From: a virus
Lineage: Duplodnaviria > Caudoviricetes
Reading direction: 5' to 3' (one strand)
Length of the DNA: 64,000 nt
IMG/VR virus record: IMGVR_UViG_3300044644_000283
Coordinates: 519-64,518 of that record
In this document: in pieces, positions 1,499 to 63,200 of the stretch
How the letters are laid out: every line of letters starts with the position of its first letter
How positions within the stretch are numbered: the stretch's first letter is position 1
The notes under the pieces: generated by a model
Told to the model about the DNA's origin: nothing
The model's input: the letters and a program-made list of their open reading frames with translations, nothing else
Database searches by the model: none
Made by a program: the position numbers and the translations under genes

Positions 1499-2452
1499 AT
1501 GGAAGACTGGCTAGGCGAACTTATCGGGATTGACCCAAATAGCACCAGCAGCAATTTTGGTAACAACTACACATCTAACGCAGATCTGTTTTCCCAAATC
1601 ACTGGCGGTGGTGGCAACTCTAGTCTGCTAAGTAGCCTTGGCAGCATTCTGTCCGGTGGTTCTGGCACAACTGCTCAATTGGCCAGTCTGGGTGGTTTGG
1701 GTGCTTTGCTCAATTCCATCGGTGGTTCTAGCGGTAGCGGGTACAAAGGCTATCAAGGAAGCATACCTAAGTACACAGCTTCACGTACACAGTACGCTCC
1801 ACCTGTCAGCACCGTAGGCATGGGCTACAAGCCATCCGACGCAGAGGTAATGGATTACCTCAAGCGCCCCGGTTTAAACGACGCAATGATTGCCCGTTCT
1901 ATGAACGAGTTTGGTGTTTCTCCAGAGCGTATTGCCGACGTAACCAAGGCTCCCGTGGCTGACATTCAATCACGTTATCAGGCTGCGATGGGGCCAAATG
2001 CGGGTATTGCCCGTCGCCCCGGCTCAGGTGGTGTGACGTATTTCTCACCCATGGTTTACACGCCCCAAGCTGCTGCTCCAGCCGCTCCTGTGGAAGCAGC
2101 GCCAGTAACGCAACCTGTGGCAACTGAACCTGAAAAGTATGCATCTGGCGGTATGGCTGCGGGTGGATTGGGTTCTTTGGGTGGTTACTCCGACGGTGGA
2201 CAGCTTCTGCGCGGCCCCGGTGATGGTGTATCTGACGACATCCCTGCCATGATTGGTGACAAACAGCCTGCCCGTCTGGCAGATGGTGAGTTTGTTGTGC
2301 CTGCTCGTATTGTTTCCGAACTGGGCAACGGTTCTACAGAAGCGGGCGCACGTAAACTCTACGCCATGATGGATCGTATTAAGAAGGCTCGTGGCAAGAG
2401 CATGAAAAACATCGCAGCCAACAGCAAGGCTGACAAACATTTACCAGCGTAA
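1499..2452 (+). CDS. Internal virion/ejection protein with C-terminal GPGDGxSDxIPA...LADGEFVVPA domain
   Basis: YASGG/YSDGG followed by GPGDGVSDDIPAM..LADGEFVV, a motif recurrent in phage tape-measure and ejection proteins; position in late operon. Confidence 0.7.
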   Translation: MEDWLGELIGIDPNSTSSNFGNNYTSNADLFSQITGGGGNSSLLSSLGSILSGGSGTTAQLASLGGLGALLNSIGGSSGSGYKGYQGSIPKYTASRTQYAPPVSTVGMGYKPSDAEVMDYLKRPGLNDAMIARSMNEFGVSPERIADVTKAPVADIQSRYQAAMGPNAGIARRPGSGGVTYFSPMVYTPQAAAPAAPVEAAPVTQPVATEPEKYASGGMAAGGLGSLGGYSDGGQLLRGPGDGVSDDIPAMIGDKQPARLADGEFVVPARIVSELGNGSTEAGARKLYAMMDRIKKARGKSMKNIAANSKADKHLPA

Positions 2453-2461
2453 GGTTTAAAC

Positions 2462-3352
2462 ATGGCTACTTCACCTATTGCAGGACTAACCCCAACTACC
2501 GGCGGTTCATCATCCTCCACTCTGTCTGAGTGGGCAGGCCCGTATGTAACAGAGATGCTTGGCAAAGCCCAAGCAATTGCTGACCAGCCTTACGCTGTGT
2601 ACGGTGGCCCACAGACTGCGGGTGAGTCAGGCTTACAGTCCAAAGTCTTCCAAGGCTTGGGTAATCTGTCCTTCCCCGGCCAGCTTGGTCAAACATTTAG
2701 CTCTACAGGTGCGTACCAGCCTCCTGCTATGGGTGGTGATGCGTTTACACCGGCTCCTGTAGGAATGGGTGCTGGTGCACCAACAACTCCCGGAGCAACA
2801 ACTCCCGCACAGCCTACTGGCGTAGCTGCTCAGTACATGAACCCATACTTGCAGTCTGTCCTTCAGCCTCAGTTGGAAGAGATGCGTCGCCAGTCACAGA
2901 TAAACTTACAGCCCGGTCTGACTAAGTTAACCCAAGCCGGTGGTTATGGTGGTGGCCGTCAGGCCATTATGGAGTCTGAAGCTAACCGTAATCTGTTGCA
3001 AGAGCAAAACAAGGCGATCGGCACAGGCTACGCCAACGCCTATGACAAAGCCATGGGCCAATTCAACACCGAGCAGGCTCAGGCTAAGACTTTGGCTGAC
3101 ATGATGTCTGAGGCCGGTGGTCAACAGCGTGGCATTGAGCAACAAGGCATCAGCGCAGACTACAACGAATTCCTTGCACAGCGTGATGATCCAATGAAGA
3201 AGACGCAGTATTTGCAGTCTATGCTCCAAGGTCTGCCTATCTCGACAGTTACCAACACAGCCGCCCAACAAACTGGTCTTGGCTCTTTGGTGTCTTCCAT
3301 CGGTGGCATGGGTTCCATCATGGACTCTCTCAAGAAATTTAATCTGACCTAA
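2462..3352 (+). CDS. Internal virion / DNA pilot-like protein
   Basis: YMNPY and GGYGGGRQAIMESE motifs, Gln/Gly-rich, Gly-rich hydrophobic C-terminus; SD TAAGG. Confidence 0.65.
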   Translation: MATSPIAGLTPTTGGSSSSTLSEWAGPYVTEMLGKAQAIADQPYAVYGGPQTAGESGLQSKVFQGLGNLSFPGQLGQTFSSTGAYQPPAMGGDAFTPAPVGMGAGAPTTPGATTPAQPTGVAAQYMNPYLQSVLQPQLEEMRRQSQINLQPGLTKLTQAGGYGGGRQAIMESEANRNLLQEQNKAIGTGYANAYDKAMGQFNTEQAQAKTLADMMSEAGGQQRGIEQQGISADYNEFLAQRDDPMKKTQYLQSMLQGLPISTVTNTAAQQTGLGSLVSSIGGMGSIMDSLKKFNLT

Positions 3353-3361: not shown

Positions 3362-4957
3362 ATGAATCTGATCCAAGTACAAGAGCACCTCAAAGACATG
3401 CCCATGAGGGCAATCATGGAATATGCAAACGGGAAGAACCCACAGGTTCCTCCCTATTTGGCTTTGGGCGAGTTGAATCGTCGCAAGCAGATGGAGCAGT
3501 CTGCAAGGAATCCTCAAGCTCCGGACGGCACAGTTAAAGAGCGTCTAGAGAAAGAACTGACAGGCCAAGCCACAGATCTGATGCAGGCCGGAGCCGCTAA
3601 ACAAGCGCAGTCCAATCAGCAGTTACAGCAAGGCTTGATGGCTCAACCACAGCCAGTGCCTGAAGGTACACCTCAGCCCCCTCAACCAGAGGAAGAGATG
3701 CCTCAGATGGCTGGTGGGGGTTTGACGGCTCTTCCAGTGGGTGACATGTTTAAATTTGCCTCCGGTGGAGGCGTTGTTGCTTTTGCTGAAGGTGATTTGA
3801 TTCGTGATCCCATGACGGGAGCAGTCATTAGCTCTAGCGAACAGTCAGATGATGATCGCACCTTGATGGAACGACTGGGTATCTTTAACCCAGAGAACCG
3901 TCGTGCCATTGAGCGTGGTGAACGCGAGGCTCGTAAGACTCCTGCTAAAGAAGAGAAGAAAACAGTAGCTCCTGCCGCTGAAGCTCCTCCAGTAGCTGAA
4001 GCTCCCGTAGCTGTTCCTCCTTCTCCTGCTCCAGCACCTATGGGTATCCCTGCGGCTATTGGGATGCCTAAGGCTCCTACGTTTACAGCACCTGCATCCG
4101 ACGACTACAGCACAAAGCTTGCTGCGTTTAAAGCAGCTAACCCCGGACTTGCAGGTAGCGAGTTCCAAGGCTTGTTGGACAAGATCGCTAAACAAGACGA
4201 AGCCGACCGTGCTCGTTTTATGACTCAGGAGAAAGGCCGTACACGTGCTGACTTCTGGCAGGCGCTTATTGATGCGGGTGAATCTACCCGTGGTCAAAAA
4301 GGCATCGGTGCTTTGCTGGGTGGCTTTGGTAGATCTGCTGGCGCTTCACAAGCCAAAGCAGATGAGCGTGCAGATGCACAAGCCAAGATGCGTCGTGACC
4401 AAGAACTTGGCATGGCTAAGATGCGTTCAGAACTGGAAGCAGCACGCCGCGCCGAAGCTCGTGGAGACTTTGAAGCAGCGTTTAAACACAAGCAAGATGC
4501 TGACAAGATTGCTCGTGATCTGCAACAGACTGAGTTCTCTAACAAAATGGACATTGCTAAGTTGCAAGAGCAAGCCCGTGGTCACAACATCACGGCTTCT
4601 CAAGCTAACCGTGCGCCTGCGTTGATTCAGATGGCTCAAGAGATCCAACGCCAGAATCCTAAGATGACGTTTAACGAAGCTCTGGAGCGTGCCAGCCTTG
4701 CACAGCAAGGTGCTCAGTATCAAAGCGCAGACACACGTATGCAACAGGCTATCGAAAACGCATACAAGGAAGAGCGTCCGCATGATCCGAAGATGATTCC
4801 GTTCATGGCTAAGACACCTGAAGAGCGTCAAAAAATGATGCAAGAAAATGAGGCCGCATACAACCGAATTCGTGCTAGATTTGGGGTAGGCGCAAAGGGG
4901 CCGCAAACTGACCCTAACGCTCCCACTCCCGGTTTTGGCCAAGCACGTCCTAAGTAA
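3362..4957 (+). CDS. Internal virion/ejection protein, coiled-coil
   Basis: 531-aa ORF with SD; MAGGG/FASGG motifs; long helical Ala/Glu/Gln-rich C-half. Confidence 0.65.
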   Translation: MNLIQVQEHLKDMPMRAIMEYANGKNPQVPPYLALGELNRRKQMEQSARNPQAPDGTVKERLEKELTGQATDLMQAGAAKQAQSNQQLQQGLMAQPQPVPEGTPQPPQPEEEMPQMAGGGLTALPVGDMFKFASGGGVVAFAEGDLIRDPMTGAVISSSEQSDDDRTLMERLGIFNPENRRAIERGEREARKTPAKEEKKTVAPAAEAPPVAEAPVAVPPSPAPAPMGIPAAIGMPKAPTFTAPASDDYSTKLAAFKAANPGLAGSEFQGLLDKIAKQDEADRARFMTQEKGRTRADFWQALIDAGESTRGQKGIGALLGGFGRSAGASQAKADERADAQAKMRRDQELGMAKMRSELEAARRAEARGDFEAAFKHKQDADKIARDLQQTEFSNKMDIAKLQEQARGHNITASQANRAPALIQMAQEIQRQNPKMTFNEALERASLAQQGAQYQSADTRMQQAIENAYKEERPHDPKMIPFMAKTPEERQKMMQENEAAYNRIRARFGVGAKGPQTDPNAPTPGFGQARPK

Positions 4958-4965: not shown

Positions 4966-7900
4966 ATGCCTTTATACGAGATCAAAGCTCCCGATGGTCG
5001 CACGTATGAAATTGAAGGCCCAGTAGGCGCAACCCAACGACAGGTTGAAGCCGAGGTGCTCCGTCAGTTTCCTATGGCGGGTAAAACCACACAAGAACTG
5101 GAAGCCGCACCCCGTGCTCCCAGTACCTTAAAGGACATTGGTCTTGCTACAGGGCAAGGTTTGGCGGGAGGCATTCAGTCTCTCACCAACTTGTTTGGCG
5201 TTGACAATGCCGCTTCTAAAGCATTGGGCAACGTTCAGCAGTCTGCGTTTGAAGCACTGTCTCCCGCCCGTAAGGAAGAGATTGCACGTCGCCAAGAGTT
5301 ACAGGAACGTGCCAAGGGTGACTTAGGAAAAGAGATCTCTACAGGTGTCGGTGGCTTCTTTGAAGCCCCTTTGCAGACAGGTTTGCAAGCACTAGCTTCC
5401 AGTGCTCCTATCATTGCAGGCGGCTTGATCCCCGGTGGTCAGATTGCCGCAGGCGCAAGTCTTGGTGCTAGAGCCTTAGCAGGCGCACGTGGAGCCACTG
5501 GTATCGGTGGCTTAATGGGAGTTGGTGGTCAGAAGGGCCAAGACTACGAGGCGGTTAAACAAGCCTTGTTAGCCAAGGGCGTAGACCCCATGATTGCAGA
5601 GCAGAAAGCCCAAGAGGCGGCTGCTTACTCATTGGAGAACTTGCCCCGTCAAGCATTGGCTGGCGGTGCAGGCGCATTGGAAGGTGCATTCGGTATTGAA
5701 CAAGCCTTGGCTAATGCGGCCAAGAAAGTCAGCAAAGCTAACGGCGCTGCGGCTCTGGATGCTCCAACGTTTAAACAAGCTGTTGGCACATCTGTGCTGG
5801 GCGAAGCTGCACCTGAAGCCGTACAGGCCGGTGTTGGTCAAGTCGGTACTAACGTCGCTTTGAATCAAGCTGGTATTGCCACAGACCTGACTGAAGGTTT
5901 GGCCGGTACAGTTGCTCATGATGCGTTGGTCGGTGCAGTGTTGGGTCTTGCAGTCTCCCCTGCACAGATGTCTAATCTGCAACGCTCACATCAACAGGCT
6001 AAAGCTAATGCACAAGCAGAGAAACAAGCTCAATTCGACCAAGAACGTCAAGCTGCTAATGAGAAAGCAATGGCAGAACGTGCTGTTCTGGAGAAACAAA
6101 CAGAAGACATCCGTCGAGAGATGGAGCAAAAGCAAGCTATTGCTCTTCCTGCACCGGCTGAAGAAATCCCCGCTGAAGAAGTACAAGTTGACCCGCTCAA
6201 GAATCCTCTAGGCAACATCCGTAAGAACGAAGTTCCCTTTGACATCTATAAGCAGATCGATGACTACCGCAAACAGGCTGGACTTCCCAAGCTCAAGGAG
6301 TACTCGATTGAGGACTTTGTGGATGCTATGCCGGGTGTCAACCCCAAGGCAGAACAAGCTCTGCTTGACGAACTCATTACTGCCAAGTCTGGTTATGCCG
6401 GTGAGAAATACACCGCAGAAGATATTCTGAACCAAGCCAAGCGCAAGAAGGTTGAGACAAAGACACAAGGCTTTGCCGACTTTCTGGCCCGGACAACCGG
6501 TGTAAACGCACTGGAGAAGATGTCCCAGCCGCAGCTACACGCTGCGTTTAAAGCACTGGCTAATCTCCCAGAAGCTACAGACCTAAACATCTTGCCCGAA
6601 GGCACAAACGCCCGACGCTTTGATGACAAACAATATGCCCGCGCCCTCAAAGGCGTGGACATGTTCCTGAATGATTTAGGTGCGCCTGCTGATCCCAAGC
6701 AAGTCATCGACACCATTAAGGAATACACAAACCTTACAGAAGACTCACACGCTGGCGCTATCCTTGATGCCGCCATCAAGAATGGTGATGTGGACTTGAT
6801 CAAGTCTGCACGCTATGAAGTCTACGACCCCAAGACCGGCAATGCTTTGCCGTCCACCTACGCATCTAAGACTGCCGCACAGGCTGCGGCTGCCAAGCGT
6901 GGTTTAAACGTACGACAGATTACAACGGATGCGATTGGCTCACCAACCACCTCCGCCACGTTGCCCGAAGGATTTGACATCCGTGAAGGCTCGTTTAAAG
7001 AGGGTGAAGCTCCAGCAGGCTACGAAGTTTCCGCCGGGGAAGAAGTCCTGTTTAAAGCCAACACAGTCGAAGAAGCCAACGCCAAGAAGGCAAGTTTTGA
7101 GCGTACTCGTGCCGGTATGGCTAACGCTCGTGAGAACCAAATCACGCAGTTAAACAACGCGGTTGAAGCCAGCCAGAAACGTTTAAACACATTAGAAGCA
7201 CAAGGCAAAGGCCAGACGACTCAGTACGAGAAGGCGGCCGGTCGCCATGCTAAGTTGGTCGAAGAGACTCAGGCAAAGATTGCCACCCTGACAGACGAGA
7301 TTGCTAAGTACGATCCCAAGGCTACACCGCTAGAGGTCAAGCCTACGGGCACTAAAGCCGTTGGCCGTAAGGGCTACACCGTGTTTGATCAAGGTCAGGC
7401 TAAGGCTACCTACCCCACCCGTCAAGCGGCTGAAGAAGGCATCTTGGCCGACATGGATGAGAAGCAACTGCAAGAGTTGTCTCAACAGCAAGGCCGTCGT
7501 GCCATCGGTAAGAAGGCTGAAGCTGAAATCAAACGCAGAACTGCCGCTCCACAGACTGAAGGCAAGAAAGTTTCTGAAGTCTTAGGGGACATTGAAACCA
7601 AGAAAGCCAAGGCTCAAGAGAAGCCTGAGACTCCCGGAGCCAAGGAACGCATGGCTCAGTTTGAGGCATTGCTTGGCCCCATGCTGAAGAAGTTTGGCTT
7701 GGAAGATGTCAGCCTGAAGATCGTTGAAGATCTCAAGGCAGAAGGTTCTTACGCCAAGAAAGTCATTCAGATTGCTTTGGACTTGGGCGACCCTGTGCGT
7801 GTTCTGCGTCATGAGTCTGTCCACGCCCTGAAAGAACTGGGCTTCTTTACGCCTCAGCAGTGGAAAGCCTTGGAGCGTATGGCCAAGGATCAGTGGATCG

Positions 7901-10900
7901 ACAAGTATTTGAAGAACCGTCAGGCCATGTACAACGGACAGCCTATGTCCCGTTATGACGCTTATGTACAAGAGTACAAAGGCGACATGGACAAGGTTAC
8001 TGAAGAAGCAATCGCTGATGCGTTTGCTGACTTTGCCAATAACAAAGCTCCGGCCGGTATGCTGGCCTCGCTGCTCAAACGTTTAAACGACTTCTTTGCG
8101 GCGCTGCGTAATGCATTGGCTGGCGCAGGCTTCCAAACCTTTGAAGATGTATTCGGCAAGGTTGAGCGTGGCGAACTGAAAGCCGGTAAAGCCACAGAAG
8201 GTGGCGAGAAGATGTCGTTGGCGGGAGAAGGAGTTCCTTTCTCTACACGTGGCATCATGGAACGCAAGACCAGCACAGCCCAGCAGGAGTTGGGTTTAAA
8301 CACTGAAGCTGTCCGCAACCGATTCAACAACGTCCGCGACATCGCCAAGGCTTTGAACCAGTACACACTGGATCAGTTTGGTGCGATGGATCGCAACAAC
8401 CTCACGCCACAACAAGCTACGCAGATTGCCCAAGCTATTGCGGACGAGGTGGCCTACCAACTGGGTACAACCGCCAAGACTGGTACAGGTCTGGGTTGGT
8501 ACTCCAACAACTATCCTAATGCCGTTAGCCGACTGGCCGAGCGTTTCCCTGAGCTTGCAGAAAACAAACATGCCCGCTCAGTGTTCTCAGCTTTGGTTGC
8601 AGTGACATCCAACGGTGAGAAGGTTACTAAGAACATCGACAACGCCATCAAGCTGTACGCTGATCTGCGTGAGGGTAAACCCTTGGTTGCCATGGGTAAC
8701 CGTAGGGCTACAGCCCTAGAGAACAACCTTGTCATGATTCAAGAGTTGCTTGACACCCACGGTGAAGACTTTGAAAAGGTTCTGCTCCAAGAGATCACAG
8801 TCAAGGAAATGAATGCCAGACTGCGGGAACGTGGTGAAGACACTGACGGTAGCTACTTGGCCAACACTGTTGTGCCTGCGGCCGCTGTGTACTTCGGCCC
8901 TAAGCTTGGCGCGTTCTACGCCAACCTGTCCGGCTCAGAAGGTTACCTGACCATGGACTTGTGGTGGACTCGCTCCATCAACCGTATGCGTGGCCTGTTG
9001 ATGCCTAAGGCTACGGAGGCTTCTATTGAGAAGTTCCGTGACATGATGGATCAGCCTGACGCAACCCGTGATGAAGTGGTTGCCGCAACGATTCCTTTGC
9101 GTAACAAGTACGAGGAATACGGTTGGAACACTGAACTTGAACACTTGACCGGATCGAAAGAACCCGCCAAGAAAGATGAGAAAGACGCATGGTTCAAGAA
9201 GGCCAAGCGCAAGGCGGCTGAAGCCTATGACCAACTTCTGTACGAACACAACTTGGAAAAGATGGCTAACACCATCTACAAGAACGAGTTTGAGATGTTG
9301 GAAGAGGCTCCGTTTACAGCCACCGATCGTAAGTTCATGTACGACGCAGGCCGTAAGGCACAGCAGATGTTGCGTAATGAAGGCATCGATCTGACACTGG
9401 CCGACATTCAAGCGGCTTTGTGGTACTACGAAAAGCGTCTATACGAAAAATTAAGCGGAAGGAAAGCAGATGACATCGGATATGAAGAAGCAATCATCGC
9501 CCAAGCCCGTGAGGGTGATGGACGAGCGCGACCCAGTGTGGTCTTCAGTGAAGGATCTGACGGTGGGGTTAGACCCAAAGGAAAGAGCCAAGGCGCTGAT
9601 GCAGTTCGTGGCGAGTTTGAAGAAGACGAACGCCTAAGCCTGCGTGACTTTACAGAAACGCCTGAGTTTAAAGCTTGGTTCAAAGACAGCAAGATTGTTG
9701 GTCAGCGTACAGGCGAACGTGATGCGCGTGGCCGTCTGTTAGAAGATAAAACCAAGCCAAAAATCATGTACCACGGCACTGCCCGTGACATTACTTCGTT
9801 TAGACCAAAACAGGCTAACGCCATTTTTGTGACGGCGGATAGTGCATTTGCCGAAGATTTTGCTGACGCATCCGAGGAGTACATTAAAAAAGAATTACTG
9901 TACACCTTGCCCGAAGAGGAGCAGAAACGTTTAGTTCAAGACGCTATCAAACTTGCGTTGAAGAACAAAGAAATTACTCAAACAGAGTTTAAACGTTTAA
10001 ATACTAATACGGTAAATCAAGCGTTAGAGACTGCGGCTGTTCAGGATAATGTTTCCAAAGTATTAAAAGACCGCATGACCACCGGTCAAAATGTTATGCC
10101 TGTGTATGTCAGCGCACAGAAGCCTTTTGACTATGACAATGCCGCTCATGTGCAACAAGTGGTTGATGAGTTAAACAAGAGCTTTGACAGCTATGGCCGG
10201 AAGATCGGTAATCAAGAGAAACCTTATATTGCTACCGGCAGTTGGGAAACAATTGAAAACCGCAAAGTACAAAAAGCAATACGTGATTTAGGATTTGATG
10301 GCTTCTACGTTAAAGAAGCTGGTACTAAGAACCTTGCTGTCTATGAGCCGTCGCAAATCAAATCTGCTATTGGCAACATCGGCACATACGACGCTACCAA
10401 TCCTGACATCCGCTACAGCATGCGTGATGCCGCAGATACGTTTGATCCAAAGGCGCTTGAGCAATATGCAACGCAAAGCTCTAAGTCCAAGATCAAACTG
10501 GTCAACATGGACATCGATGACTTCTTGCGCTTGGCCGAGTTTGGCTATGACAAGAACAAAGAAGCTGGCGCAGAACAACGTTTAAATGCCGGTATTAAAT
10601 CCAGCACGCTGCCGGGCCTGACTGTTTACACGAAGGATGGCGATCTCAGAGTGACGGGTCACGAAGGTCGTCACCGTGCACGTGCCTTGCAAAAGGCGGG
10701 GTACTCCACGATGCCTGTGCTGTGGGAGTCCAACATCATTTGGGGTGCACAGACTGACCCCGAAGCATGGGGCTACGAAGCCAAATGGCCTGACCGCGTT
10801 TACGCTCAGAAAGGTGCGCTGCACGAGTACGCATCTATTCCTATGCCGTTTACACGCGAAGAAGCTGGCCAAGATTACGCCGGGCCACAGAAGCAAGAGC

Positions 10901-13470
10901 GTTTAAGCCTACGTGATTCTACCGACCCAGATATTCTTGGTCGTGTTGACGAGACAACTACGTCACGTGAAGAGACAGGTTTCGTTGAGCGTATCACCAA
11001 GGCACTGGGTGGCGAGTCCTTCTCCAAGCTCCGTGCACAGGCTTTAAACAGATACCAGCGTCTGGCAGACTACGACAAAGAGTTGGCCAAGACCATGGGC
11101 GGTGCGGCATTCATGGCTGATGCAAGCGCAGAATCTGCGGCTTTGATGTCTGACCTTGCGGCCGGTGTCACTGCGTCTGCTATGGGTGTACATGATCGCA
11201 ACGGTGGTATCCCAGTCTATAAGAATGGCTTCACTACAGTCTTCAATGACAACGGCAAGATCAAAGGCCCAGTTGCCATCTTTGCTCCGTTGGCTAAATA
11301 CAACGACCCATTCGTGTATCAGTTGTATCAGTTCTGGGCGGGCGCACAGCGTGGCTCACGCCTGCTGGCCGACGGTAAAGAAGAGTTGTTTACACAGGCT
11401 GACTTAGATCTGGCCAAGAAACTGTGTGATCCAGCTAATCCGGCTGCATCACAATACCCTGAGTTTAAAGAAATTCAGGAAGACTGGAACACGTTCAACA
11501 ATGGACTGGTTCAGTTCCTTGTGGACACAGGTGTCCTGTCTGAAGCTCAGAAGGAAGCCTTCACTAAGCATTCCGACTACATCCCGTTCTATCGTCAGAT
11601 GGATGGCGAGAACACCATCGGCCCCAACATCTTCCAATCTATCTCAGGCGTTAAGGCTCCCAAGAAGATCAAAGGTGGCGACGCTCCGTTGGCTGACTTC
11701 CTTGAAACGATTGTCCGCAACACCCAGTCTTCTATCCAGATGGGCATGAAGAACGCAGCCGCACAGCGTGCTGTAAACGTGGCGGTCAAGATCAATCAAG
11801 CAGAGCGTTTGGCTAAACCATCCGCAGGCTTGGACATTGTTCAGGTGCTTGAGAACGGCAACATGGTCAGCTACCAAGTCCATGACCCGTTGTTCATTGA
11901 TGCGGTCAAGAGTTTAAACATGCCTGAACTGCCGTTCATCGGCCTGCTGTCTGGCCCGGCCAACCTCTTGCGTAACTTGGTCACCAAGGATCCCGGCTTC
12001 ATGATGGCTAACATGGTGCGTGACTCCATGGCCGCCTACGTGACGAGCGGTGTCAAGATGACTCCAGTCGTGGACACAATCAAGAACTTCAAGTCTGCCA
12101 TGGCAGGCACATCGCCAGAGTTCCAAGCCCTTTTAAACGCAGGCTTGCTGGGCGGCTACGAGTTCTCGCAAAACGTCGAGGTCAGTGCTCAGGCGTTTGA
12201 GAAAGAGTTGAAGAAGAAGGCCAGTGGCCAGTCCTTGCTTCAGCGTATTGCTAATCCTAAGACTGCCGCATCATCTTTGTGGGAAGCACTGGAGAAGGGT
12301 ACAACTGCATCTGACGCTGCCACAAGGATTGAGGTGTATAAACGCACCCTCGCAGAAACTGGCAACGAGGCAGAAGCTCTGTTCCGTGCGCTTGAGGTGA
12401 TGAACTTTAACCGCAAGGGTAGCTCTCCTGTCGTTCGTATCCTGACTGCGGCCATCCCATTCTTGAACGCACGTATGCAGGGCTTGGATGTCCTGTACCG
12501 CGCTTCGTTTGGCAAGCTTGGCCACAAGGATGCGGCCGCTATTCAACGCTCTTTCTTTGTCCGTGGCATGACCATGGCCGCTCTGTCTTCCATGTACTGG
12601 GCAATGACCCACGATGATGACGAGTACAAGCGTCAGGAACAAGAGACTAAAGACAACAACTGGCTTGTCCCATCACTGGGTGTCAAGATCCCAATCCCAT
12701 TTGAGATTGGTGTCATCTTCAAAGTCATTCCTGAACGCATCATGGCGTTATCGTTTGGCGACGATACAGGCAAAGACTTCATGAAGTCCATGGCACGTCA
12801 GTTAAGCAGTACCTTGGCGGTCAATCCTATTCCTCAGGCGGCTCTGCCTTTGGTTGAGGCGACCACCAACTACTCCTTCTTCACGCAACGACCCATCATT
12901 GGTCAGGGCATGGAAGGGATTGCTCCTGAGTACCAAGTCGGCCCCAACACCTCAGCCATCTCGGCTCAGATTGGATCTGCGTTAGGTATCTCCCCCATGA
13001 AGCTTGACCACATCATTGGCGGCTACACCGGCACGATGGGCATGTACATGGTCAGTGCTTTGGACTCCGTCATGAGCATGAATGATGACTCACCCAATGC
13101 GTCTAAACGCTTTGAGCAGATGCCAATCATCAAACGTTTTGCGTTGGATCCTGAGGCTAGAGGTACGGTCACCAGTTATTACGAGTTGAAGAACGCCACC
13201 GATCAGGCTGTGCGTACCTCCAACCTACTGGAACGCACCATGAACTTCGAGGAGCGTGGCGAGTTCATGCGGGACAACATCAAGATGCTTGCCGCTAAGG
13301 ACTACATCCTTGACATGGAGAAGACCATGAAGGAGTTCCGTCAGATGCAAGTGATGATCCGTAGTTCTAAGATGGATGCTGATGCCAAGCGGGACGCTCT
13401 GCTCCGGATCAACCAAGCGCAGAACGCCCTGACGGCTAACATCAATACGCTAAAAGCTAACGTATCGTAA
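4966..13470 (+). CDS. Large polyvalent ejection protein: zincin (HESVH), glycosylase-like domain, ADP-ribosyltransferase-like domain, ParB-like domain, LPD38-like C-terminus
   Basis: 2834 aa; LRHESVH near 7810; FKAWFKDSK..YHGT..PVYV..GFDG..QIKSAIGN at 9650-10410; EGRHR near 10665; PFLNARMQG near the C-terminus. Confidence 0.8.
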   Translation: MPLYEIKAPDGRTYEIEGPVGATQRQVEAEVLRQFPMAGKTTQELEAAPRAPSTLKDIGLATGQGLAGGIQSLTNLFGVDNAASKALGNVQQSAFEALSPARKEEIARRQELQERAKGDLGKEISTGVGGFFEAPLQTGLQALASSAPIIAGGLIPGGQIAAGASLGARALAGARGATGIGGLMGVGGQKGQDYEAVKQALLAKGVDPMIAEQKAQEAAAYSLENLPRQALAGGAGALEGAFGIEQALANAAKKVSKANGAAALDAPTFKQAVGTSVLGEAAPEAVQAGVGQVGTNVALNQAGIATDLTEGLAGTVAHDALVGAVLGLAVSPAQMSNLQRSHQQAKANAQAEKQAQFDQERQAANEKAMAERAVLEKQTEDIRREMEQKQAIALPAPAEEIPAEEVQVDPLKNPLGNIRKNEVPFDIYKQIDDYRKQAGLPKLKEYSIEDFVDAMPGVNPKAEQALLDELITAKSGYAGEKYTAEDILNQAKRKKVETKTQGFADFLARTTGVNALEKMSQPQLHAAFKALANLPEATDLNILPEGTNARRFDDKQYARALKGVDMFLNDLGAPADPKQVIDTIKEYTNLTEDSHAGAILDAAIKNGDVDLIKSARYEVYDPKTGNALPSTYASKTAAQAAAAKRGLNVRQITTDAIGSPTTSATLPEGFDIREGSFKEGEAPAGYEVSAGEEVLFKANTVEEANAKKASFERTRAGMANARENQITQLNNAVEASQKRLNTLEAQGKGQTTQYEKAAGRHAKLVEETQAKIATLTDEIAKYDPKATPLEVKPTGTKAVGRKGYTVFDQGQAKATYPTRQAAEEGILADMDEKQLQELSQQQGRRAIGKKAEAEIKRRTAAPQTEGKKVSEVLGDIETKKAKAQEKPETPGAKERMAQFEALLGPMLKKFGLEDVSLKIVEDLKAEGSYAKKVIQIALDLGDPVRVLRHESVHALKELGFFTPQQWKALERMAKDQWIDKYLKNRQAMYNGQPMSRYDAYVQEYKGDMDKVTEEAIADAFADFANNKAPAGMLASLLKRLNDFFAALRNALAGAGFQTFEDVFGKVERGELKAGKATEGGEKMSLAGEGVPFSTRGIMERKTSTAQQELGLNTEAVRNRFNNVRDIAKALNQYTLDQFGAMDRNNLTPQQATQIAQAIADEVAYQLGTTAKTGTGLGWYSNNYPNAVSRLAERFPELAENKHARSVFSALVAVTSNGEKVTKNIDNAIKLYADLREGKPLVAMGNRRATALENNLVMIQELLDTHGEDFEKVLLQEITVKEMNARLRERGEDTDGSYLANTVVPAAAVYFGPKLGAFYANLSGSEGYLTMDLWWTRSINRMRGLLMPKATEASIEKFRDMMDQPDATRDEVVAATIPLRNKYEEYGWNTELEHLTGSKEPAKKDEKDAWFKKAKRKAAEAYDQLLYEHNLEKMANTIYKNEFEMLEEAPFTATDRKFMYDAGRKAQQMLRNEGIDLTLADIQAALWYYEKRLYEKLSGRKADDIGYEEAIIAQAREGDGRARPSVVFSEGSDGGVRPKGKSQGADAVRGEFEEDERLSLRDFTETPEFKAWFKDSKIVGQRTGERDARGRLLEDKTKPKIMYHGTARDITSFRPKQANAIFVTADSAFAEDFADASEEYIKKELLYTLPEEEQKRLVQDAIKLALKNKEITQTEFKRLNTNTVNQALETAAVQDNVSKVLKDRMTTGQNVMPVYVSAQKPFDYDNAAHVQQVVDELNKSFDSYGRKIGNQEKPYIATGSWETIENRKVQKAIRDLGFDGFYVKEAGTKNLAVYEPSQIKSAIGNIGTYDATNPDIRYSMRDAADTFDPKALEQYATQSSKSKIKLVNMDIDDFLRLAEFGYDKNKEAGAEQRLNAGIKSSTLPGLTVYTKDGDLRVTGHEGRHRARALQKAGYSTMPVLWESNIIWGAQTDPEAWGYEAKWPDRVYAQKGALHEYASIPMPFTREEAGQDYAGPQKQERLSLRDSTDPDILGRVDETTTSREETGFVERITKALGGESFSKLRAQALNRYQRLADYDKELAKTMGGAAFMADASAESAALMSDLAAGVTASAMGVHDRNGGIPVYKNGFTTVFNDNGKIKGPVAIFAPLAKYNDPFVYQLYQFWAGAQRGSRLLADGKEELFTQADLDLAKKLCDPANPAASQYPEFKEIQEDWNTFNNGLVQFLVDTGVLSEAQKEAFTKHSDYIPFYRQMDGENTIGPNIFQSISGVKAPKKIKGGDAPLADFLETIVRNTQSSIQMGMKNAAAQRAVNVAVKINQAERLAKPSAGLDIVQVLENGNMVSYQVHDPLFIDAVKSLNMPELPFIGLLSGPANLLRNLVTKDPGFMMANMVRDSMAAYVTSGVKMTPVVDTIKNFKSAMAGTSPEFQALLNAGLLGGYEFSQNVEVSAQAFEKELKKKASGQSLLQRIANPKTAASSLWEALEKGTTASDAATRIEVYKRTLAETGNEAEALFRALEVMNFNRKGSSPVVRILTAAIPFLNARMQGLDVLYRASFGKLGHKDAAAIQRSFFVRGMTMAALSSMYWAMTHDDDEYKRQEQETKDNNWLVPSLGVKIPIPFEIGVIFKVIPERIMALSFGDDTGKDFMKSMARQLSSTLAVNPIPQAALPLVEATTNYSFFTQRPIIGQGMEGIAPEYQVGPNTSAISAQIGSALGISPMKLDHIIGGYTGTMGMYMVSALDSVMSMNDDSPNASKRFEQMPIIKRFALDPEARGTVTSYYELKNATDQAVRTSNLLERTMNFEERGEFMRDNIKMLAAKDYILDMEKTMKEFRQMQVMIRSSKMDADAKRDALLRINQAQNALTANINTLKANVS

Positions 13471-13744: not shown

Positions 13745-13958
13745 CTTGGCTCACACCGTTGGAACGAGCCAAGAAGTCTACATAGTCATGGATCTCATGA
13801 CCCCAGTAGGTTGTATTTTTAAAGCCCAGAAAGCGGCCTGCCAGTCGTTTAAACGCAGCATCCTGCGCTGCCTGCCAAACTTCAAAGCTCCAACCTCCGT
13901 CGTCTTCAAAGGCTTTACTGCCGATGAACTTGCAGAACTCCTGTTTACACTCATTCAT
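13731..13958 (-). CDS. Hypothetical protein
   Basis: Overlapping start/stop coupling within the minus-strand operon. Confidence 0.6.
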   Translation of the reverse strand: MNECKQEFCKFIGSKAFEDDGGWSFEVWQAAQDAAFKRLAGRFLGFKNTTYWGHEIHDYVDFLARSNGVSQDVQE

Positions 13959-14355: not shown

Positions 14356-14530
14356 GCTTAGGTCTCCGTGTAGCACGATGTGCCCAACAAGAAGCGCAGT
14401 ACCACTTGTTAGGACTCATCTGAATACCGCCTTCCGGGGCTTTGGTTTCTTCGCAGCGTGCACAGTGTTTAAACTGGTGTATTGGCTGCTTACTGCCAAT
14501 CTCTAGCTGTTGCTTGGCAAATCCATTCAT
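14342..14530 (-). CDS. Small Zn-finger protein
   Basis: CxxC...CxxC; coupled to neighbouring genes. Confidence 0.6.
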   Translation of the reverse strand: MNGFAKQQLEIGSKQPIHQFKHCARCEETKAPEGGIQMSPNKWYCASCWAHRATRRPKLAKT

Positions 14531-15457: not shown

Positions 15458-15588
15458 TCCAACTCCTCCAATTTAAACAGCGCGTAGTACACCAGCGGAC
15501 AATCGCCAAACTGTTTAAACGTATTGATTGCAAGCTGCAACCAAGCTTGTTGCTCGGCAAACTTTTCAAGATCATTAAGACTCAGCAT
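15454..15588 (-). CDS. Small hypothetical protein (44 aa, below the ORF-track cutoff)
   Basis: MLSLNDLEKFAEQQAW...EELE* fills the operon gap; its stop overlaps the next ATG. Confidence 0.5.
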   Translation of the reverse strand: MLSLNDLEKFAEQQAWLQLAINTFKQFGDCPLVYYALFKLEELE

Positions 15589-15768: not shown

Positions 15769-15975
15769 TTATTTGTTTAATTCATTTAACATTTCGTCCG
15801 TCAGTTCTCGCACTCGCAGTAGGGCCGCTTCCATATCTGCTTTATGTTTAAACTCACGTGTGATTGCCAACTTAATGTTGGCCAGAGTGGCGTACATGTC
15901 TACGCCCTTCACGGCAAACATTAACTTATGCTCATCCTCCGGATAATCAAATTCCAGAATTGCTTTGCTTTTCAT
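15769..15975 (-). CDS. Hypothetical protein
   Basis: MKxKAILEFDYPED, a common phage small-protein start. Confidence 0.6.
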   Translation of the reverse strand: MKSKAILEFDYPEDEHKLMFAVKGVDMYATLANIKLAITREFKHKADMEAALLRVRELTDEMLNELNK

Positions 15976-16178: not shown

Positions 16179-16374
16179 AGTGTTTCTCCAACATAGGTTC
16201 GCTGATCCAAAAGCCTTGGGCGTTAAGTAACATGCCTTTGGCCATCATCTCGTCCGGAGTCCGGCAACGTCGATTAACACCGTGCTTGCCGGTGCGGTGC
16301 TTGTCAAACGCAGTGTTGCTGTTGAAGTATTCTTTACAGCCACTGCATTGGTTCCTTGTGCCACTAAGTTTCAC
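16156..16374 (-). CDS. FDXHR-type zinc-binding protein
   Basis: CSGC..F....AFDKHR...RRC; GTG start at 16374 after GGAGG. Confidence 0.7.
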   Translation of the reverse strand: MKLSGTRNQCSGCKEYFNSNTAFDKHRTGKHGVNRRCRTPDEMMAKGMLLNAQGFWISEPMLEKHYDKEPTV

Positions 16375-16672
16375 GTGGAACCTCCAGTCTGCGTTCGACT
16401 GCAAGCTCTTCGACAATCAGTTCGGCAAATGATTTACCTGATGGAAAACGCATCTTGGCCGCATTGTTTTGATTGACCACAGCTATGGCCTTCTCAATCC
16501 CTGCGTTGAATCCTGATGTGTATGGGTCACCAGTGGACAGGCGACTGTCAATCGCCTCCCGAATCATTTGAGCCATCGTGATCTTCTTAAGCTTGGCAAA
16601 CTTCTTCATGCGTAAATGCTCGTCTTCGGAGACATACGTCATGAACGGTTTAAACTTCTTAAAATGGGTCAT
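16364..16672 (-). CDS. Ribbon-helix-helix DNA-binding protein
   Basis: FMTYVSEDEH..MKKFA...TMAQMIREAID. Confidence 0.6.
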   Translation of the reverse strand: MTHFKKFKPFMTYVSEDEHLRMKKFAKLKKITMAQMIREAIDSRLSTGDPYTSGFNAGIEKAIAVVNQNNAAKMRFPSGKSFAELIVEELAVERRLEVPRET

Positions 16673-17051: not shown

Positions 17052-17337
17052 GGCCGTGCATCAAATCAAACTCTTGCACTTTGAGCATGGACTGAAGCAT
17101 CTCGTTGTGCAACTTAAGGCGGGTAATCTGACGGTGCAGATTGTTAATCTCATCACGCAGAAGCATCTGACCTTTGACTAACTGACGCTCTTCAACGGAG
17201 ATCGTGTCACGCAACTTAGCCTTGTGCAGGGTTGTGTGGACATACTGCACCTTTTCACCTAAAGCTTTTGCAATTTCTGGTGCGGTGGCATTAGGGTTGG
17301 CGTGTTTAAACTCACGGATTTTTTCAGCGCGGTTCAT
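17035..17337 (-). CDS. HTH domain protein
   Basis: MNRAEKIREF..NPNATAPEIAKALGEKVQYVH; SD TAAGGAG. Confidence 0.65.
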   Translation of the reverse strand: MNRAEKIREFKHANPNATAPEIAKALGEKVQYVHTTLHKAKLRDTISVEERQLVKGQMLLRDEINNLHRQITRLKLHNEMLQSMLKVQEFDLMHGHGSAI

Positions 17338-23881: not shown

Positions 23882-23913
23882 TTTAAACATTGCCAGCAGC
23901 CGCTGCTGGTAGG

Positions 23914-55867: not shown

Positions 55868-55869
55868 CC

Positions 55870-55962: not shown

Positions 55963-55963
55963 A

Positions 55964-56437
55964 ATGGAACTTGAGTATTACACCAAGATTATTGGCGCAG
56001 TAACTGCCTCGACCGCGATGGTTGGCGGGGGCTATACGCTTGCTGATAAGTTTGGTGTATTCCATAAGGACATCCTCAAGTGGGCACCGGAGCACTTTCA
56101 AATATCTGACGCCCCTGCAAATGGCGAGTTCAAAGCTGTGGTGGCTCGGCAAAAGATTCGGGATGACTGTGAAGTCACATCGTTTAAACTAGAAGTGCGG
56201 GATTCTGAGTTGGTTGTACACCCTGCCAAGCCTAGCATTGCAACGTTTTCAGGCCCAGCCAGCGACACAGTGGATAAGTTCGGGTACAAATTCAAGCTTG
56301 ACACCACTTCACAAGTGACGCCCGGTGTTGCTACGTTGATGGCGCATATCAAATACAAATGCCCAGAGGGTGAAATAGTTGTGAACTATCCGTCACACAA
56401 GAACCTGATGTTTACGATTAAGGAATCCAATGTTTGA
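55964..56437 (+). CDS. Membrane-anchored protein in the lysis region
   Basis: N-terminal hydrophobic segment, two Cys. Confidence 0.55.
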   Translation: MELEYYTKIIGAVTASTAMVGGGYTLADKFGVFHKDILKWAPEHFQISDAPANGEFKAVVARQKIRDDCEVTSFKLEVRDSELVVHPAKPSIATFSGPASDTVDKFGYKFKLDTTSQVTPGVATLMAHIKYKCPEGEIVVNYPSHKNLMFTIKESNV

Positions 56438-60195: not shown

Positions 60196-60204
60196 GGTTT
60201 AAAC

Positions 60205-63200
60205 ATGGCAAAGTTTTCAGACGCGCAGATACGCGCCTATGTAGAAGCAAACATAGATAACCCTGCGGCTATTGCTGAAGCTGCTTCTGCCGCTGGCATA
60301 TCTGTAGCTGACTTGTCCCGTGCCACGGGTTTCTCTGCCGCTGATATTAACGGTTACTTTGGTAATGCCGGTGTATCTATTTCCGCTCCAGATAATTCTG
60401 CGGCTGAACGTGCGGCTGCTGCACAGGCTGCTAATGAAGCCGCATGGGCTAAACAACAAGCCGAGAACGAAAGATTGTGGGCTGCACAACAAGCTGAAAA
60501 TGAACGCAAATGGGCGGAGCAACAAGCTGCTGCTGCTGCCGCTGCTCGTCAAGCCGCTGCTGCACAGGCCGCTGCTGATAAAGCCGCTGCGGAAGCTGCC
60601 GCCCGTGAGGAAGCCGCCAGAACTGCTGCCCAACAAGCTGCCGCTAAACGTGCCGCTGATGCTGCGGCTGCGGCTCAAGCTGCTGCGGATAAAGCGAAAG
60701 CAGATGCGGCTGCACAACAAAAAGCTGCGGCTGACGCTGCTGCTAAGGCGCAGGCTGAGGCCCAAGCCAAAGCCCAAGCAGATGCTCAGGCTAAGGCACA
60801 AGCCGATGCACAAGCAAAGGCGCAAGCGGATGCTGCCGCCAAGGCTCAGGCAGATGCTCAAGCGAAGGCGCAGGCTGACGCAGCTAAAGCAGCCACGCAA
60901 GCCGCAGGTATTGCGTCTTTACCAGCCGCTGCCCCAAAAGTTTCTAATGCTGATATTGTGGGTTGGTTTAAAGATAACCCTGATGCCGATGCCGCCGCAA
61001 TTAGCCAAGCCATGAAGGCAGCTAATGTTACTGGGGATCAGGTATCTCAAGCCTTGGTTGGTAACAAAGACGCTGCTCAACAATATCTAACAGCCCAAAT
61101 CCTTTCCCAAGGCACAACTAGCCAGTGGAAGGGCGAAGGTCAGGGATCTGCTGAAAAGAACGCAGCAGACATGGCTAAAATTTTGGCTGACACTGGCATT
61201 ACAGATATTGGTCAGTTTGGCAAAGTCACGACAAAAGTCGATGCCGCCGTTATCCCGCAGTATGAATCCGTACAAAAGGGTTACGACAACGAAGGCAACA
61301 TGATTGTTGAGAACAAGATTGTTGGCTATGTAGACCAGAACGGCAAAGCTGTAGATCCCAACTTAGTCAAGGCTGATACCATTTGGACTGGCGGCGAGAG
61401 CGGCCAAGCTGAGACTGTTTACACGGCCCCTGTTGGTACAAAAGAAGTATTTGGCAACAAAGCTACAGGTCAAGCCGTAGCTGAAACATACGGTGAGCGT
61501 CAGACTGGCAACGCCTTTGGCGGCACATATTCAGGCGAAGGCAACACTGGTTATCGGGTGCAGTTTGATGCGTCTGGTAAGCCAATCTTCTACACAACGC
61601 AGGCATCTAGTAGCGACATTGGCGACCTTGCGCCTATGTTGGCTATTGCCTCGTTCATCCCTGCCTTGGCTCCATTTGCTCAAGCCATTAACGCTGCAAT
61701 TGCGATTGATCGTGGTGACGTTCTGGGTGGTATTGCGTCGTTGGCAGGCGTGTCCGGCATGTCTGAAGTTTCTACGGGACTGAAGGTTGTAAATGCTTTA
61801 GAGAAAGGCGATGCTATGGGCATCGTCGGGGCGCTAATGTCTGACCCAAGTCTGGGTAAGCTTGCATCCAACACTATGATTGCAGACGGCATTTCATTTG
61901 CCGACGCAGGCAACACGCTTAAGGTTGTTGATAATTTAAACAAAGGCAATCTGGTTGGTGCGATTAGCACAGCCGGTGAAATGGCTGGCAGTTCTGATGT
62001 CAAGACAGCCGCAGCCGGTGTTAATTTGGTTAATGCCATTCAAAGTGGTGACGTAACTAAAATTGCTAACGCAGCAGGCAATTTAAACAACATCGTCAAC
62101 TCAACCAACAACGTAGTCAACCAATTAAAAGACTCTGGTTTAGTGGATAAGAGTGCAAACACTAACATCCAAAATCTGTTGGATGATATGTTAACGGTCG
62201 ATGCCTCTGGTGCTAAAGACATTAACGCTGCCGCTCAGTTTGCTGCGGAGTCTGGTTACAACAAGTTTACGTTTGATGGCAACACCTACACGTTAAACAA
62301 CAATAACGCAGAAAACACAATTGCTCAGTTAGAGGCGGATGCACTAAAAACTAACACTGCTAACAATTTAGCTGGTGGAGAATTTGATGGCGTAGATGCA
62401 GCTATCGCCGCCAATACCAAGGCAAACAATACAGTTATTGGCAATGCAGAGGCTAACGATCTAACGGAAGCTATGGCTTTAGCCAAAGCCCGCAACCCAA
62501 CGGGTACATCATTTACTTTTGGTGGCAATACTTACACCATGGGTACTTCAGATGCCGCTGTAACCCAAGCTTTAAACGCCGCTCAGTCACAAGCTGCCAC
62601 CCAAGATTTAAACAACAGCATTGCAAATGCTGGCTCTCGTTCTGAGGCGTTTAAACTTGCCCGTGAAAGTTTGGGTTCTGGCAAAACGTTTACATACAAC
62701 GGACAAACTTACAGTACCAGCACAGCCGATGAACAAATTGCCGCTTTAAACAAATCCAATTTATCAACTAATACAGCAGCATCCTCTCAGACTGCCGCCC
62801 GTAGTGTGGGCGCAATTAGCGAAGCAGATGCTGTGGCTCAAGCAATTAGTGACACTAATCTGGCAAATATGTCACCTCAGATGCGTGCAATTGTGCAGGC
62901 ACAGAATGACATGGCTGCCAGAGATAAAGCTGCACGCGACACAGCAGCACTGTTAGCCAACAAAGTGTTTGCTGCGGATGATCTGCAAGTAGATGCTATG
63001 GGCAATACAGTGTCGGGCAGTATGAATTTGGCTGACAATAATTCCATTACTGGAAAGATTAACACCACGGCTGGAAAGATTGTCCAGCAAGGTTTGTCTA
63101 ACCTTGCACAAGCTGGTGGTGAGTTTGTGCAAAGTGTTGGTTATACGGGTTCTGCGTTAGGGTTAACTGGTGCGGAAAACGCTTTAACCAAAGCTGGTAG

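Follow-up and report, generated by a model that had tools for sequence, protein, structure and literature searches.

The window examined here is a 64,000-nucleotide stretch of DNA, bases 519 to 64518 of the 64,518-base virus record IMGVR_UViG_3300044644_000283, which comes from a tailed lake phage and is rated complete by CheckV. It carries 46 sites of the 8-base palindrome GTTTAAAC, the element that is the subject of this report, as well as a gene at 28264..28998 on the minus strand (gp28264-28998) that encodes a candidate trans-acting factor for it. The first 518 bases of the record hold no site. Family matches place the large terminase at 31302-32798 and also identify a portal, a major head protein, a small terminase, MoxR-like AAA+ and VWA proteins, and, for replication and recombination, a T7-gp4-like primase/helicase, a Sak-like annealing protein, an exonuclease and RusA. 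Neither an integrase nor a resolvase was found in the window, and the proteins scanned included no recognisable repair enzyme. The original prediction had remarked on the absence of a methyltransferase; the three main methyltransferase families (PF01555, PF02086 and PF00145) gave no match at E≤0.1 anywhere in the record, while other methyltransferase families were not searched. The nearest cultured phages have large terminases only 57% identical.

All 46 start coordinates listed in the original prediction are exact matches to GTTTAAAC, and its estimate of about one copy expected by chance is borne out by 100 dinucleotide-preserving shuffles (mean 1.10, s.d. 1.17, maximum 5), none of which reached 46. 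Markov models of orders 0 to 3 give expectations of 0.96, 1.18, 1.13 and 3.59. At higher orders the expectation rises to 13.4, 28.0 and 45.4, near the observed count, because these models are fitted on sub-words of GTTTAAAC itself. The palindrome is the commonest 8-mer of the window by far; its runner-up among palindromic 8-mers reaches 7 copies. The same DNA is present in independently assembled lake and freshwater metagenomes, as seen among 24 sequencing runs compared as contigs, in which uncovered parts of the stretch carry no meaning; run X3 matches the listed pieces with 0 differences.

More than 20 copies of a variant had also been claimed, and GTGTAAAC/GTTTACAC indeed has 26 copies in the window; the record as a whole has 27, where 2.1 would be expected. 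This asymmetric variant, read as GTGTAAAC, has 9 same-strand and 17 opposite-strand copies in the window, and in one relative (L061) it outnumbers the perfect site. Enrichment among one-base variants is confined to G1>A, G1>C and T3>G and does not extend to transitions at large. Where the encoded amino acid is incompatible with the perfect site, one-off variants are in excess, as with GTTTAAAG before G-starting codons. The double variant GTGTACAC is found 0, 4, 0, 0 and 2 times in five genomes, compared with 16-27 copies of the single variant. As a control we used CAAATTTG, the reversed palindrome of the same composition, which has 0-2 copies in the same genomes.

The sites are held at the level of DNA. 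Protein sequence alone does not explain them, as the original prediction had argued, and on this point synonymous shuffling and codon-context usage agree. In 300 codon-preserving shuffles the mean number of sites was 11.65 (s.d. 1.93, maximum 18) against 46 observed, and 6 of the sites left after shuffling sat in unshuffled intergenic DNA. Neither outcome that the original prediction would have taken as its refutation was obtained: the enrichment does not vanish on shuffling, and the independent contigs speak against an artefact. Where the peptide permits GTTTAAAC, the palindrome is used in 39 of 53 cases (15 of 22 [CRSG]-L-N contexts and 24 of 31 x-F-K-[LPHQR] contexts), and the FK dipeptide is itself raised (69 versus 37.6 expected). 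Sites within open reading frames (ORFs) occupy both strands and the two frames that avoid an in-frame TAA, again as first described: by the ORF map, 15 read xGT-TTA-AAC and 23 read xxG-TTT-AAA-Cxx, with 8 of the 46 not fully within an ORF.

Conservation among related phages is equally pronounced. In four whole relatives with 74-79% DNA identity to the window, 24 of 31, 25 of 30, 15 of 22 and 12 of 17 alignable sites are kept, against background fractions for all 8-mers of 0.245, 0.232, 0.161 and 0.143. Symmetrised flanks contain no information beyond a Y at -1 and an R at +1 (65-91% across the tabulated genomes and loci), so the unit is a self-contained palindrome of 8 to 10 bp. We conclude that GTTTAAAC, or more fully YGTTTAAACR, is a cis-acting site held at fixed places by selection on DNA.

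The distribution of sites is uneven, with 1.48 per kb in the early/replication block (13.5-31.1 kb), 0.74 per kb in the ejection and polyvalent genes, and 0.21-0.37 per kb in the late genes plus a 9.4 kb segment without homologues. Although 38 of the 46 sites lie inside ORFs, non-coding DNA is 2-3 times enriched relative to a local null in 9 of 9 genomes examined, and clusters occur at control-like regions, namely three sites in 80 bp before a winged helix-turn-helix (wHTH) gene and two flanking a hairpin after RusA. In the positions that follow, each site is an exact, strandless match to GTTTAAAC, and "kept" refers to the aligned relatives in which it was counted.

At the left end, sites are located at 1872..1879 (inside ORF 1499-2452), 2454..2461 (intergenic, abutting the ATG of ORF 2462; kept 2/2) and 4480..4487 (in ORF 3362-4957). 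The polyvalent-protein gene has sites at 5769..5776, 6902..6909, 7181..7188, 8081..8088, 8294..8301, 9987..9994 (with the variant GTTTAAAT immediately after) and 11912..11919 (kept 4/4). The product of this gene (4966-13470, plus strand) is a 2,834-amino-acid protein with ART-PolyVal and LPD38 domains, and lies downstream of a putative DNA-ejection protein at 2462-3352. The early region follows with 13847..13854 (kept 4/4), 14467..14474, 15513..15520, 15846..15853, 16648..16655 (codons 6-9 of a ribbon-helix-helix (RHH) gene), 17304..17311 (in a helix-turn-helix (HTH)/coiled-coil gene) and 17767..17774 (3′ part of the Sak-like gene; kept 4/4). The terminator-like hairpin after RusA has one site to its left (19797..19804) and one to its right (19839..19846). 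Further sites are at 21834..21841 (3′ end of an HNH-like ORF), 22756..22763 (primase/helicase gene), 23555..23562 (5 nt past the primase/helicase stop), 23881..23888 (directly 3′ of a hairpin and T-run), 23920..23927 (3′ end of ORF 23914-24156) and 24618..24625. Contigs of other strains diverge at the 23555 site and still have a site there: those of two runs depart at 23550, and the divergent sequence of run X21 opens with its own GTTTAAAC.

The VWA gene carries 25483..25490 and 25672..25679, a CobT-like ORF (25825-26931) carries 26257..26264, and the MoxR-like AAA+ gene carries 26942..26949, 27394..27401 and 27790..27797. An ATG follows the site at 29666..29673, and 30830..30837 lies at the 3′ end of the small-terminase gene. 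The cluster before the wHTH gene consists of 30994..31001, over the -35-like hexamer of a sigma-70-like match at 30995-31022, 31024..31031, just past the -10-like hexamer, and 31067..31074, which abuts the ATG of the LexA-like wHTH gene. The strain in run X7 lacks 39 bases at 31034-31074, between the second and third of these sites, and has 3 other letters there. In the late region, the portal gene holds 34291..34298 (kept 4/4) and 35170..35177 (11 nt before its stop), and 38820..38827 (kept 4/4) is intergenic after the major-head gene, between TTGCAT and TATAAA. The remaining sites are 40508..40515, 41325..41332, 43204..43211, 47991..47998, 56182..56189, 60197..60204 (intergenic, abutting the ATG of ORF 60205) and 62649..62656.

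Enrichment extends throughout the clade of the window. In 80 of 80 related IMG/VR loci (large terminase 84-95% identical), which together contain 708 copies in 750,907 bases, GTTTAAAC is the top or joint-top palindromic 8-mer, and 44-54 sites are found in each of five long relatives (50-63 kb; completeness 83-100% by CheckV), where the reversed control has 1-2 copies. Of the distant isolates whose large terminases are 57% identical, 50 kb of 023Pt_psg01 (guanine-plus-cytosine (GC) fraction 0.365) contain 3 sites and 50 kb of DSL-LC04 contain 0. The top 8-mer of DSL-LC04 (locus L101, its first 50 kb) is another sequence, TTTGCAAA, found at 8 places, which may be that phage's own dispersed palindromic site.

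Chromosomes of candidate hosts do not share the signal. Two Burkholderiales metagenome-assembled genomes (MAGs) that include short contigs of relatives are not enriched (41 copies versus 45 of the control, and 68 versus 110), and the sites they do have bunch on small, probably viral, contigs. Among 201 sampled Burkholderiales genomes (one of them, G035, unpublished), none comes near the phage density, the highest having 87 copies in 3.7 Mb. For these candidate hosts, the MAGs and the 201 genomes argue against a host-wide motif. Contig C52 of G001 has at least 8 copies between 402 and 1729, and G074 (2.0 Mb) has 82 copies versus 24 of the control; in both of these Burkholderiales MAGs, phage contigs of this type have probably been binned, a possible pointer to the host.

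The palindrome is also iterated in phages unrelated to that of the window. An IMG/VR scan for three copies of GTTTAAAC within ~100 bp returned at least 117 stretches, and the 80 loci read (L102-L181) comprise 24 from the window's own clade, 32 unrelated and motif-rich loci (at least 1 site per kb) and 24 that are unrelated and motif-poor. The corresponding scan with CAAATTTG, which was complete, gave 79 stretches. These control loci have 0.11 further sites per kb versus 0.79 at the GTTTAAAC loci, and five or more further sites are present at 6 of the 79 compared with 41 of the 80 read. Five long records from other lineages (CheckV completeness 67-100%, GC 0.35 to 0.46) contain 46 (G210), 49 (G213), 37 (G211), 33 (G212) and 42 (G214) sites, against order-2 expectations of 2.76, 1.16, 0.82, 1.83 and 2.66, respectively, with most sites packed in a block of 8-12 kb. 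At least four unrelated phage lineages other than the window's carry the motif. These lineages have no excess of one-off variants, and flank preference differs between lineages: C at -1 reaches 63-65% in G210 and G214 despite a GC of 0.35, and T reaches 47-64% in the G212 lineage.

One gene, which the original prediction did not mention, accompanies the palindrome across these lineages. Homologues of gp28264-28998 were found in 13 of the 32 unrelated motif-rich loci and in 0 of the 24 motif-poor loci (they were not counted in the 24 own-clade loci), and among the loci read it is the only window protein that recurs across unrelated rich ones. The other 19 motif-rich loci have no copy in the fetched stretch, and as fragments they speak neither for nor against an association. 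When ORFs from 7 genomes were clustered, exactly one family was represented in all 7, and it is that of gp28264-28998. Likewise, among profiles of every early window protein, only this one finds a homologue in all five genomes of the other lineages (E 1e-12 to 5e-36).

The association also appears when the protein is taken as the query. Of 21 loci of the G212 subfamily, 18 have GTTTAAAC as their top 8-mer, as do all 18 P0038-subfamily loci, where 141.7 kb contain 129 sites and 1 copy of the control. P0035, used as a single-protein locus query, found nothing. A distant member at GC 0.55, L255, has 5 copies in 20.6 kb, making GTTTAAAC its joint-top 8-mer; GCCCGGGC, another 8-base palindrome, likewise has 5 copies in this stretch. 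Homologues in cultured phages number 164 records, and among ten examined, GTTTAAAC is present at 17 sites in Dinoroseobacter phage R5C (control 0), 8 in Acinetobacter phage Alexa (control 1), 6 in E. coli phage Bas97 (control 0) and 4 in Achromobacter phage Mano (control 0). In some carriers a copy precedes the gene itself: CGTTTAAACG lies 16-19 nt before its start codon in Bas97, Mano and Alexa, and a site is found ~32-58 nt before the gene in G211, G213 and L255 (start-to-start offsets 40, 66 and 45).

The likely start of gp28264-28998 is the ATG at 28875, backed by homologues, which gives a protein of 203 amino acids. It belongs to phrog_6361, a family of unknown function often annotated 'SprT-like protease', and a SprT-like fold followed by a C-terminal Cys4 zinc ribbon is suggested by this assignment, by the Pfam match of relatives and by a structural model. 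The relative L229:3047-3652 scores 28.8 bits against the SprT-like model PF10263 (cut-off 25.6), with four others below the cut-off at 16.9-22.9. The HExxH motif is retained in 144 of the best 150 representatives and is lost in the G211/G213 lineage and in the clade of the window (AQLAC versus HELxH in relatives), where all three active-site zinc ligands of the window copy are gone. The AlphaFold2 model (predicted local distance difference test (pLDDT) score 81.3) comprises an N-terminal helix, a small sheet, the 'HExxH' helix and the C-terminal Cys4 ribbon. NCBIfam provides no name for the protein, and a profile search of PDB sequences gave only spurious matches to designed repeat proteins. 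Its leader (28876-28960) and those of the G008 and G212 counterparts contain conserved short inverted repeats, in the window around GGCAATTTTGCC, and within the window clade these are followed by a shared TTTTGGAGA box.

The protein is predicted to form a homodimer. The homodimer model scores 0.75 versus 0.20 for the best of 3 controls; in the calibration of the tool, 20 of 30 solved homodimers attained the mark, as did 1 of 23 single chains. Contact agreement across runs is at least 64%, with partner pLDDT of at least 84. The modelled interface includes the family-invariant residues R9, E10 and P147-H148-A149. The model supports a dimer, and such a predicted dimer would fit a symmetric reader of a palindrome.

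The original prediction saw the palindrome as a binding or modification site serving genome organisation, protection, recombination, transcription or packaging. Binding is the most likely reading, whereas that list of functions was too broad. Our preferred explanation, to which we assign a probability of roughly 0.45, is that YGTTTAAACR is the site of a phage-encoded homodimer of gp28264-28998 (phrog_6361). We infer from the evidence above that the protein binds the site, and more weakly what such binding would do. The site and the SprT-like protein would be a pair passed among unrelated phages that infect different hosts. Through the motif, the factor would be tethered to the DNA of the phage itself, with the greatest density over the early/replication block. 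A tethered factor could clear or exclude DNA-bound host proteins, or could block transcription; this functional guess is made because proteases of the SprT/Spartan/Wss1 type are DNA-dependent and need DNA to act. In clades that have lost HExxH, only a binding role would be left, whether occluding or regulatory, perhaps for shut-off or protection of the early block. A more elaborate version, which we regard as doubtful, is a mobile two-part system in which the phage seeds its genome with tens of YGTTTAAACR sites and a symmetric SprT-like/zinc-ribbon dimer reads them. The DNA-dependent protease, or descendants of it that are inactive and only bind, would thereby be tethered exclusively to phage DNA. 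Such a sequence-gated guard or self-mark would strip or exclude host DNA-bound proteins from the incoming and replicating genome, and the pair would have spread horizontally among phages of Alpha-, Beta- and Gammaproteobacteria.

Several observations weigh against gp28264-28998 as the reader. We know of no SprT-like protein that reads a specific sequence. The window copy matched no Pfam model, including PF10263, at E≤0.1, and the best Foldseek matches are weak (SPRTN 6mdw, E 0.016; Wss1 5xbv, E 0.033, probability 0.93), none reaching E≤0.001. The family is large, with 4,378 representatives at E≤1e-3, and not all carriers have the motif: the marine locus L274 carries a family member and has 0 sites in 3.3 kb, and among the cultured phages Microbacterium phage Percival has 2 sites, Streptomyces phage Bogota 1, and Arthrobacter phages Emotion and Cassia, Pseudomonas phage Epa5 (a weak match, 32% identity over 92% of the query) and Bordetella phage MW2 (a partial match, 74% of the query) have 0, with 0 copies of the control in all six. 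No alternative iterated palindrome was found in Epa5 or Cassia. From these mixed counts, the link holds for a Proteobacteria-phage part of the family and not for the family as a whole. The P0038 subfamily is a sister branch of the window clade (large terminase 71-74% identical, same gene order) and not an independent lineage, and the window has no site near its own start of gp28264-28998. Finally, what these phages share could be an early module that evolves fast, with the true binder diverged beyond detection.

The window also encodes other candidate DNA-binding proteins. At 31075..31305 on the plus strand, between the small and large terminase genes, is a 76-amino-acid winged helix that corresponds to the LexA DNA-binding domain only (PF01726, E 9.7e-10; 38.5 bits, above the cut-off of 23.7) and is not a full LexA (TIGR00498, E 2e-10; 40.6 bits versus a cut-off of 110.95). 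An RHH-like protein of 102 amino acids lies at 16364..16672 on the minus strand; its pattern was read by eye, the NCBIfam match to ORF56 (E 0.0043) is below the cut-off, and its N-terminal strand is conserved at 47-49% identity. The minus-strand frame at 17035-17502 probably starts at ATG 17337 and would encode ~100 amino acids, with an HTH followed by a coiled coil; region 4 of the sigma factor FliA is matched weakly (E 0.0031), far short of the cut-off.

The original prediction named the 31075, 17035 and 16364 proteins as possible readers. In the window clade, the sites might be operators of the wHTH (gp31075-31305) or the RHH protein (gp16364-16672) that govern an early-to-late switch, with intragenic sites acting as roadblocks in the manner of mycobacteriophage stoperators. 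Such a role would suit the three sites in 80 bp before the wHTH gene, which overlap a sigma-70-like -35, the predicted start region and the start codon, and the 1-3 sites within 250 bp upstream of the wHTH gene in 67 of the 80 related loci, some of whose upstream stretches are incomplete. It would also suit a recognition helix, SKSN(V/I)HR, that is unchanged even at 50% identity, the fall in density from 1.48 per kb in the early block to 0.21-0.37 in late genes, and the precedent of GIL01 gp6, a truncated LexA homologue that binds a palindrome at a late promoter, according to the part of the report available to us (PMC6182141). We nevertheless consider it unlikely, since profiles of the wHTH, RHH and HTH/coiled-coil proteins find no homologue (E≤0.01) in the five genomes of other motif-rich lineages. 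Motif usage does not follow wHTH sequence variants, L061 being an example, a contiguous palindrome of 8-10 bp would be short for two winged helices, and with no integrase or resolvase found there is no lysogeny to maintain. Quite unlikely, too, is a host factor or process that reads the motif (a nucleoid protein, a Chi-like signal of the RecBCD type, or titration or evasion of a defence), with the SprT-like gene merely travelling alongside. The carriers infect Alpha-, Beta- and Gammaproteobacteria and their lineages range in GC from 0.35 to 0.55, which makes one common host factor improbable; neither the candidate hosts nor the 201 Burkholderiales genomes are enriched; and the motif is palindromic where Chi is asymmetric and orientation-dependent. 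Heavy restriction pressure by the host, evident in 15 absent six-base palindromes, could be cited in favour of a host process. So could the known enrichment of host-read octamers, as in lambdoid phages that lack Rec modules and are rich in Chi, although the phage of the window has its own Sak-like protein, exonuclease and RusA and thus falls in the class reported there to be without Chi (PMC12315714, in the portion seen).

A third possibility, a mutational or repair bias that makes and keeps the motif without any binding function, as in a HIP1-style drive, we judge highly improbable. It would account for the enrichment of one-off variants where the amino acid bars the perfect site, and for the low count of 2 sites in the 9.4 kb segment that lacks homologues in four relatives, as though sites accumulated the longer a segment had been in the genome. 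Against it stand the lack of a match to the three methyltransferase families and of a recognised repair enzyme among the proteins scanned, the restriction of variant enrichment to G1>A, G1>C and T3>G with no variant excess in other lineages, and the 2-3-fold enrichment in non-coding DNA with clusters at control regions. Moreover, a drive would be needed in unrelated phages, hence phage-encoded and shared, which again points to the shared gene. Chance, base composition or an assembly or cloning artefact is hardly credible: we found nothing in its favour, and the shuffles, the independent contigs, the clade-wide counts and the CAAATTTG control are all contrary to it.

Other roles were considered for the palindrome and rejected. 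A general promoter role is not indicated, as the symmetrised flanks lack -10 or -35 elements at a fixed distance, and sigma-70-like matches between 13 and 32 kb number 10 versus 17.9 in shuffled sequence. T-TTA-AAC is a slippery heptamer, and a frameshift role was dismissed because 15 sites are in the slippery frame and 23 in the other. For a role at mosaic junctions, break-points fall within 10 nt of sites in 12.7% of cases versus 2.1% under the null, but this tally is unusable because it is dominated by the sites before the wHTH gene, the loci being centred on the large terminase (bins at genome positions 31540 and 31580 hold 16 and 35 of 464 break-points). GTTTAAAC is the site of a PmeI-type 8-cutter; as a restriction-modification target it would be expected neither at ~40-fold enrichment nor without a methyltransferase of the three families searched.

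Some further features of these genomes are recorded here. Fifteen six-base palindromes are absent from the window, among them CTGCAG (0 versus 27.6 expected), CAGCTG (0 versus 29.0) and GCCGGC (0 versus 24.7), and from this we deduce heavy restriction pressure from the host; other motif-rich lineages lack 4-41 of the 64 six-base palindromes. The 9.4 kb run from 47084 to 56437, with ~14 ORFs and 2 GTTTAAAC sites, has no homologue in the four whole relatives and is probably a recently acquired or fast-changing tail or host-range module. A 67-amino-acid protein at 20906-21109 (plus strand) has no family match and is 90-97% identical across relatives whose genomes are ~75% identical, a degree of conservation that is unusually strong. 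In Epa5 (locus L285, its first 50 kb), the non-palindromic 8-mer CCCTGGGC/GCCCAGGG occurs 44 times, with both strands counted.

Phages usually shed palindromes. In the phage examined here, one palindrome is kept at ~40 times its expectation and in conserved places, at a cost in codon and amino-acid choice, and the same word recurs in unrelated phages along with one gene of unknown function (phrog_6361). This recurrence of the motif and the SprT-like gene points to an undescribed site-and-factor pair. If the pairing is correct, it would provide the first functional handle on the widespread phrog_6361 family and, as far as we know, the first instance of sequence recognition by a SprT-type protein; it would also define a genome-wide cis-element of a new type in virulent phages. 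The pairing is testable in cultured phages, namely E. coli phage Bas97 and Dinoroseobacter phage R5C. Literature on the motif, on over-represented phage palindromes and on SprT-like proteins in phages, supplementary files not covered, yielded no description of such a pair, and the main text of the R5C genome paper, likewise without its supplementary files, mentions neither SprT nor the motif.

Among known systems, the one named in the original prediction is HIP1 (GCGATCGC) of cyanobacteria, and the likeness holds for density: both are 8-base palindromes that occur about once per 1-1.4 kb, within genes and in more than one frame. It fails for the other defining property, since HIP1 belongs to the host chromosome and is linked to cognate methyltransferases, whereas here the candidate-host MAGs and the 201 Burkholderiales genomes are not enriched, no methyltransferase of three families was found, and GTTTAAAC travels with a phage gene among phages whose hosts differ. 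In cluster A mycobacteriophages the stoperators, and in Streptomyces phage phiC31 the conserved inverted repeats, are dispersed repressor sites of temperate phages with immunity repressors. They resemble the present case in having tens of copies of a short site within and between genes, at their densest in the early region, for which a phage-encoded binder is expected. Stoperators are asymmetric and oriented with transcription, however, and here there is a strict palindrome without orientation, no integrase was found, unrelated phages share the site, and the candidate binder is SprT-like and not an HTH repressor. With the SprT/Spartan/Wss1 proteins the likeness lies in the Pfam SprT-like match of relatives, the weak fold matches to SPRTN and Wss1, and a zinc ribbon that follows the domain; the difference is that the window copy is without the three active-site zinc ligands. 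The ArdC-type metalloprotease domain of conjugative plasmids offers a further comparison, and to our knowledge neither the SprT/Spartan/Wss1 nor the ArdC-type enzymes read a sequence.

Chi is the host's own signal, asymmetric, orientation-dependent and shared with the host chromosome. In Chi-rich lambdoid phages, too, an octamer far exceeds expectation and is explained by a DNA-processing enzyme, and the enrichment is found in phages lacking recombination genes, as stated in the part of that study consulted (PMC12315714). Here the phage encodes a Sak-like protein, an exonuclease and RusA, and its octamer is palindromic and not enriched in candidate hosts. The closest parallel for gp31075 is the late activator GIL01 gp6, since both consist of a LexA DNA-binding domain alone and head the late genes, with palindromes over a promoter-like stretch. 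As described in the available part of the source, GIL01 gp6 binds one 14-bp palindrome at one promoter (PMC6182141), whereas the phage of the window has 46 sites, mostly intragenic, and the other motif-rich lineages keep their sites without a homologue of gp31075.

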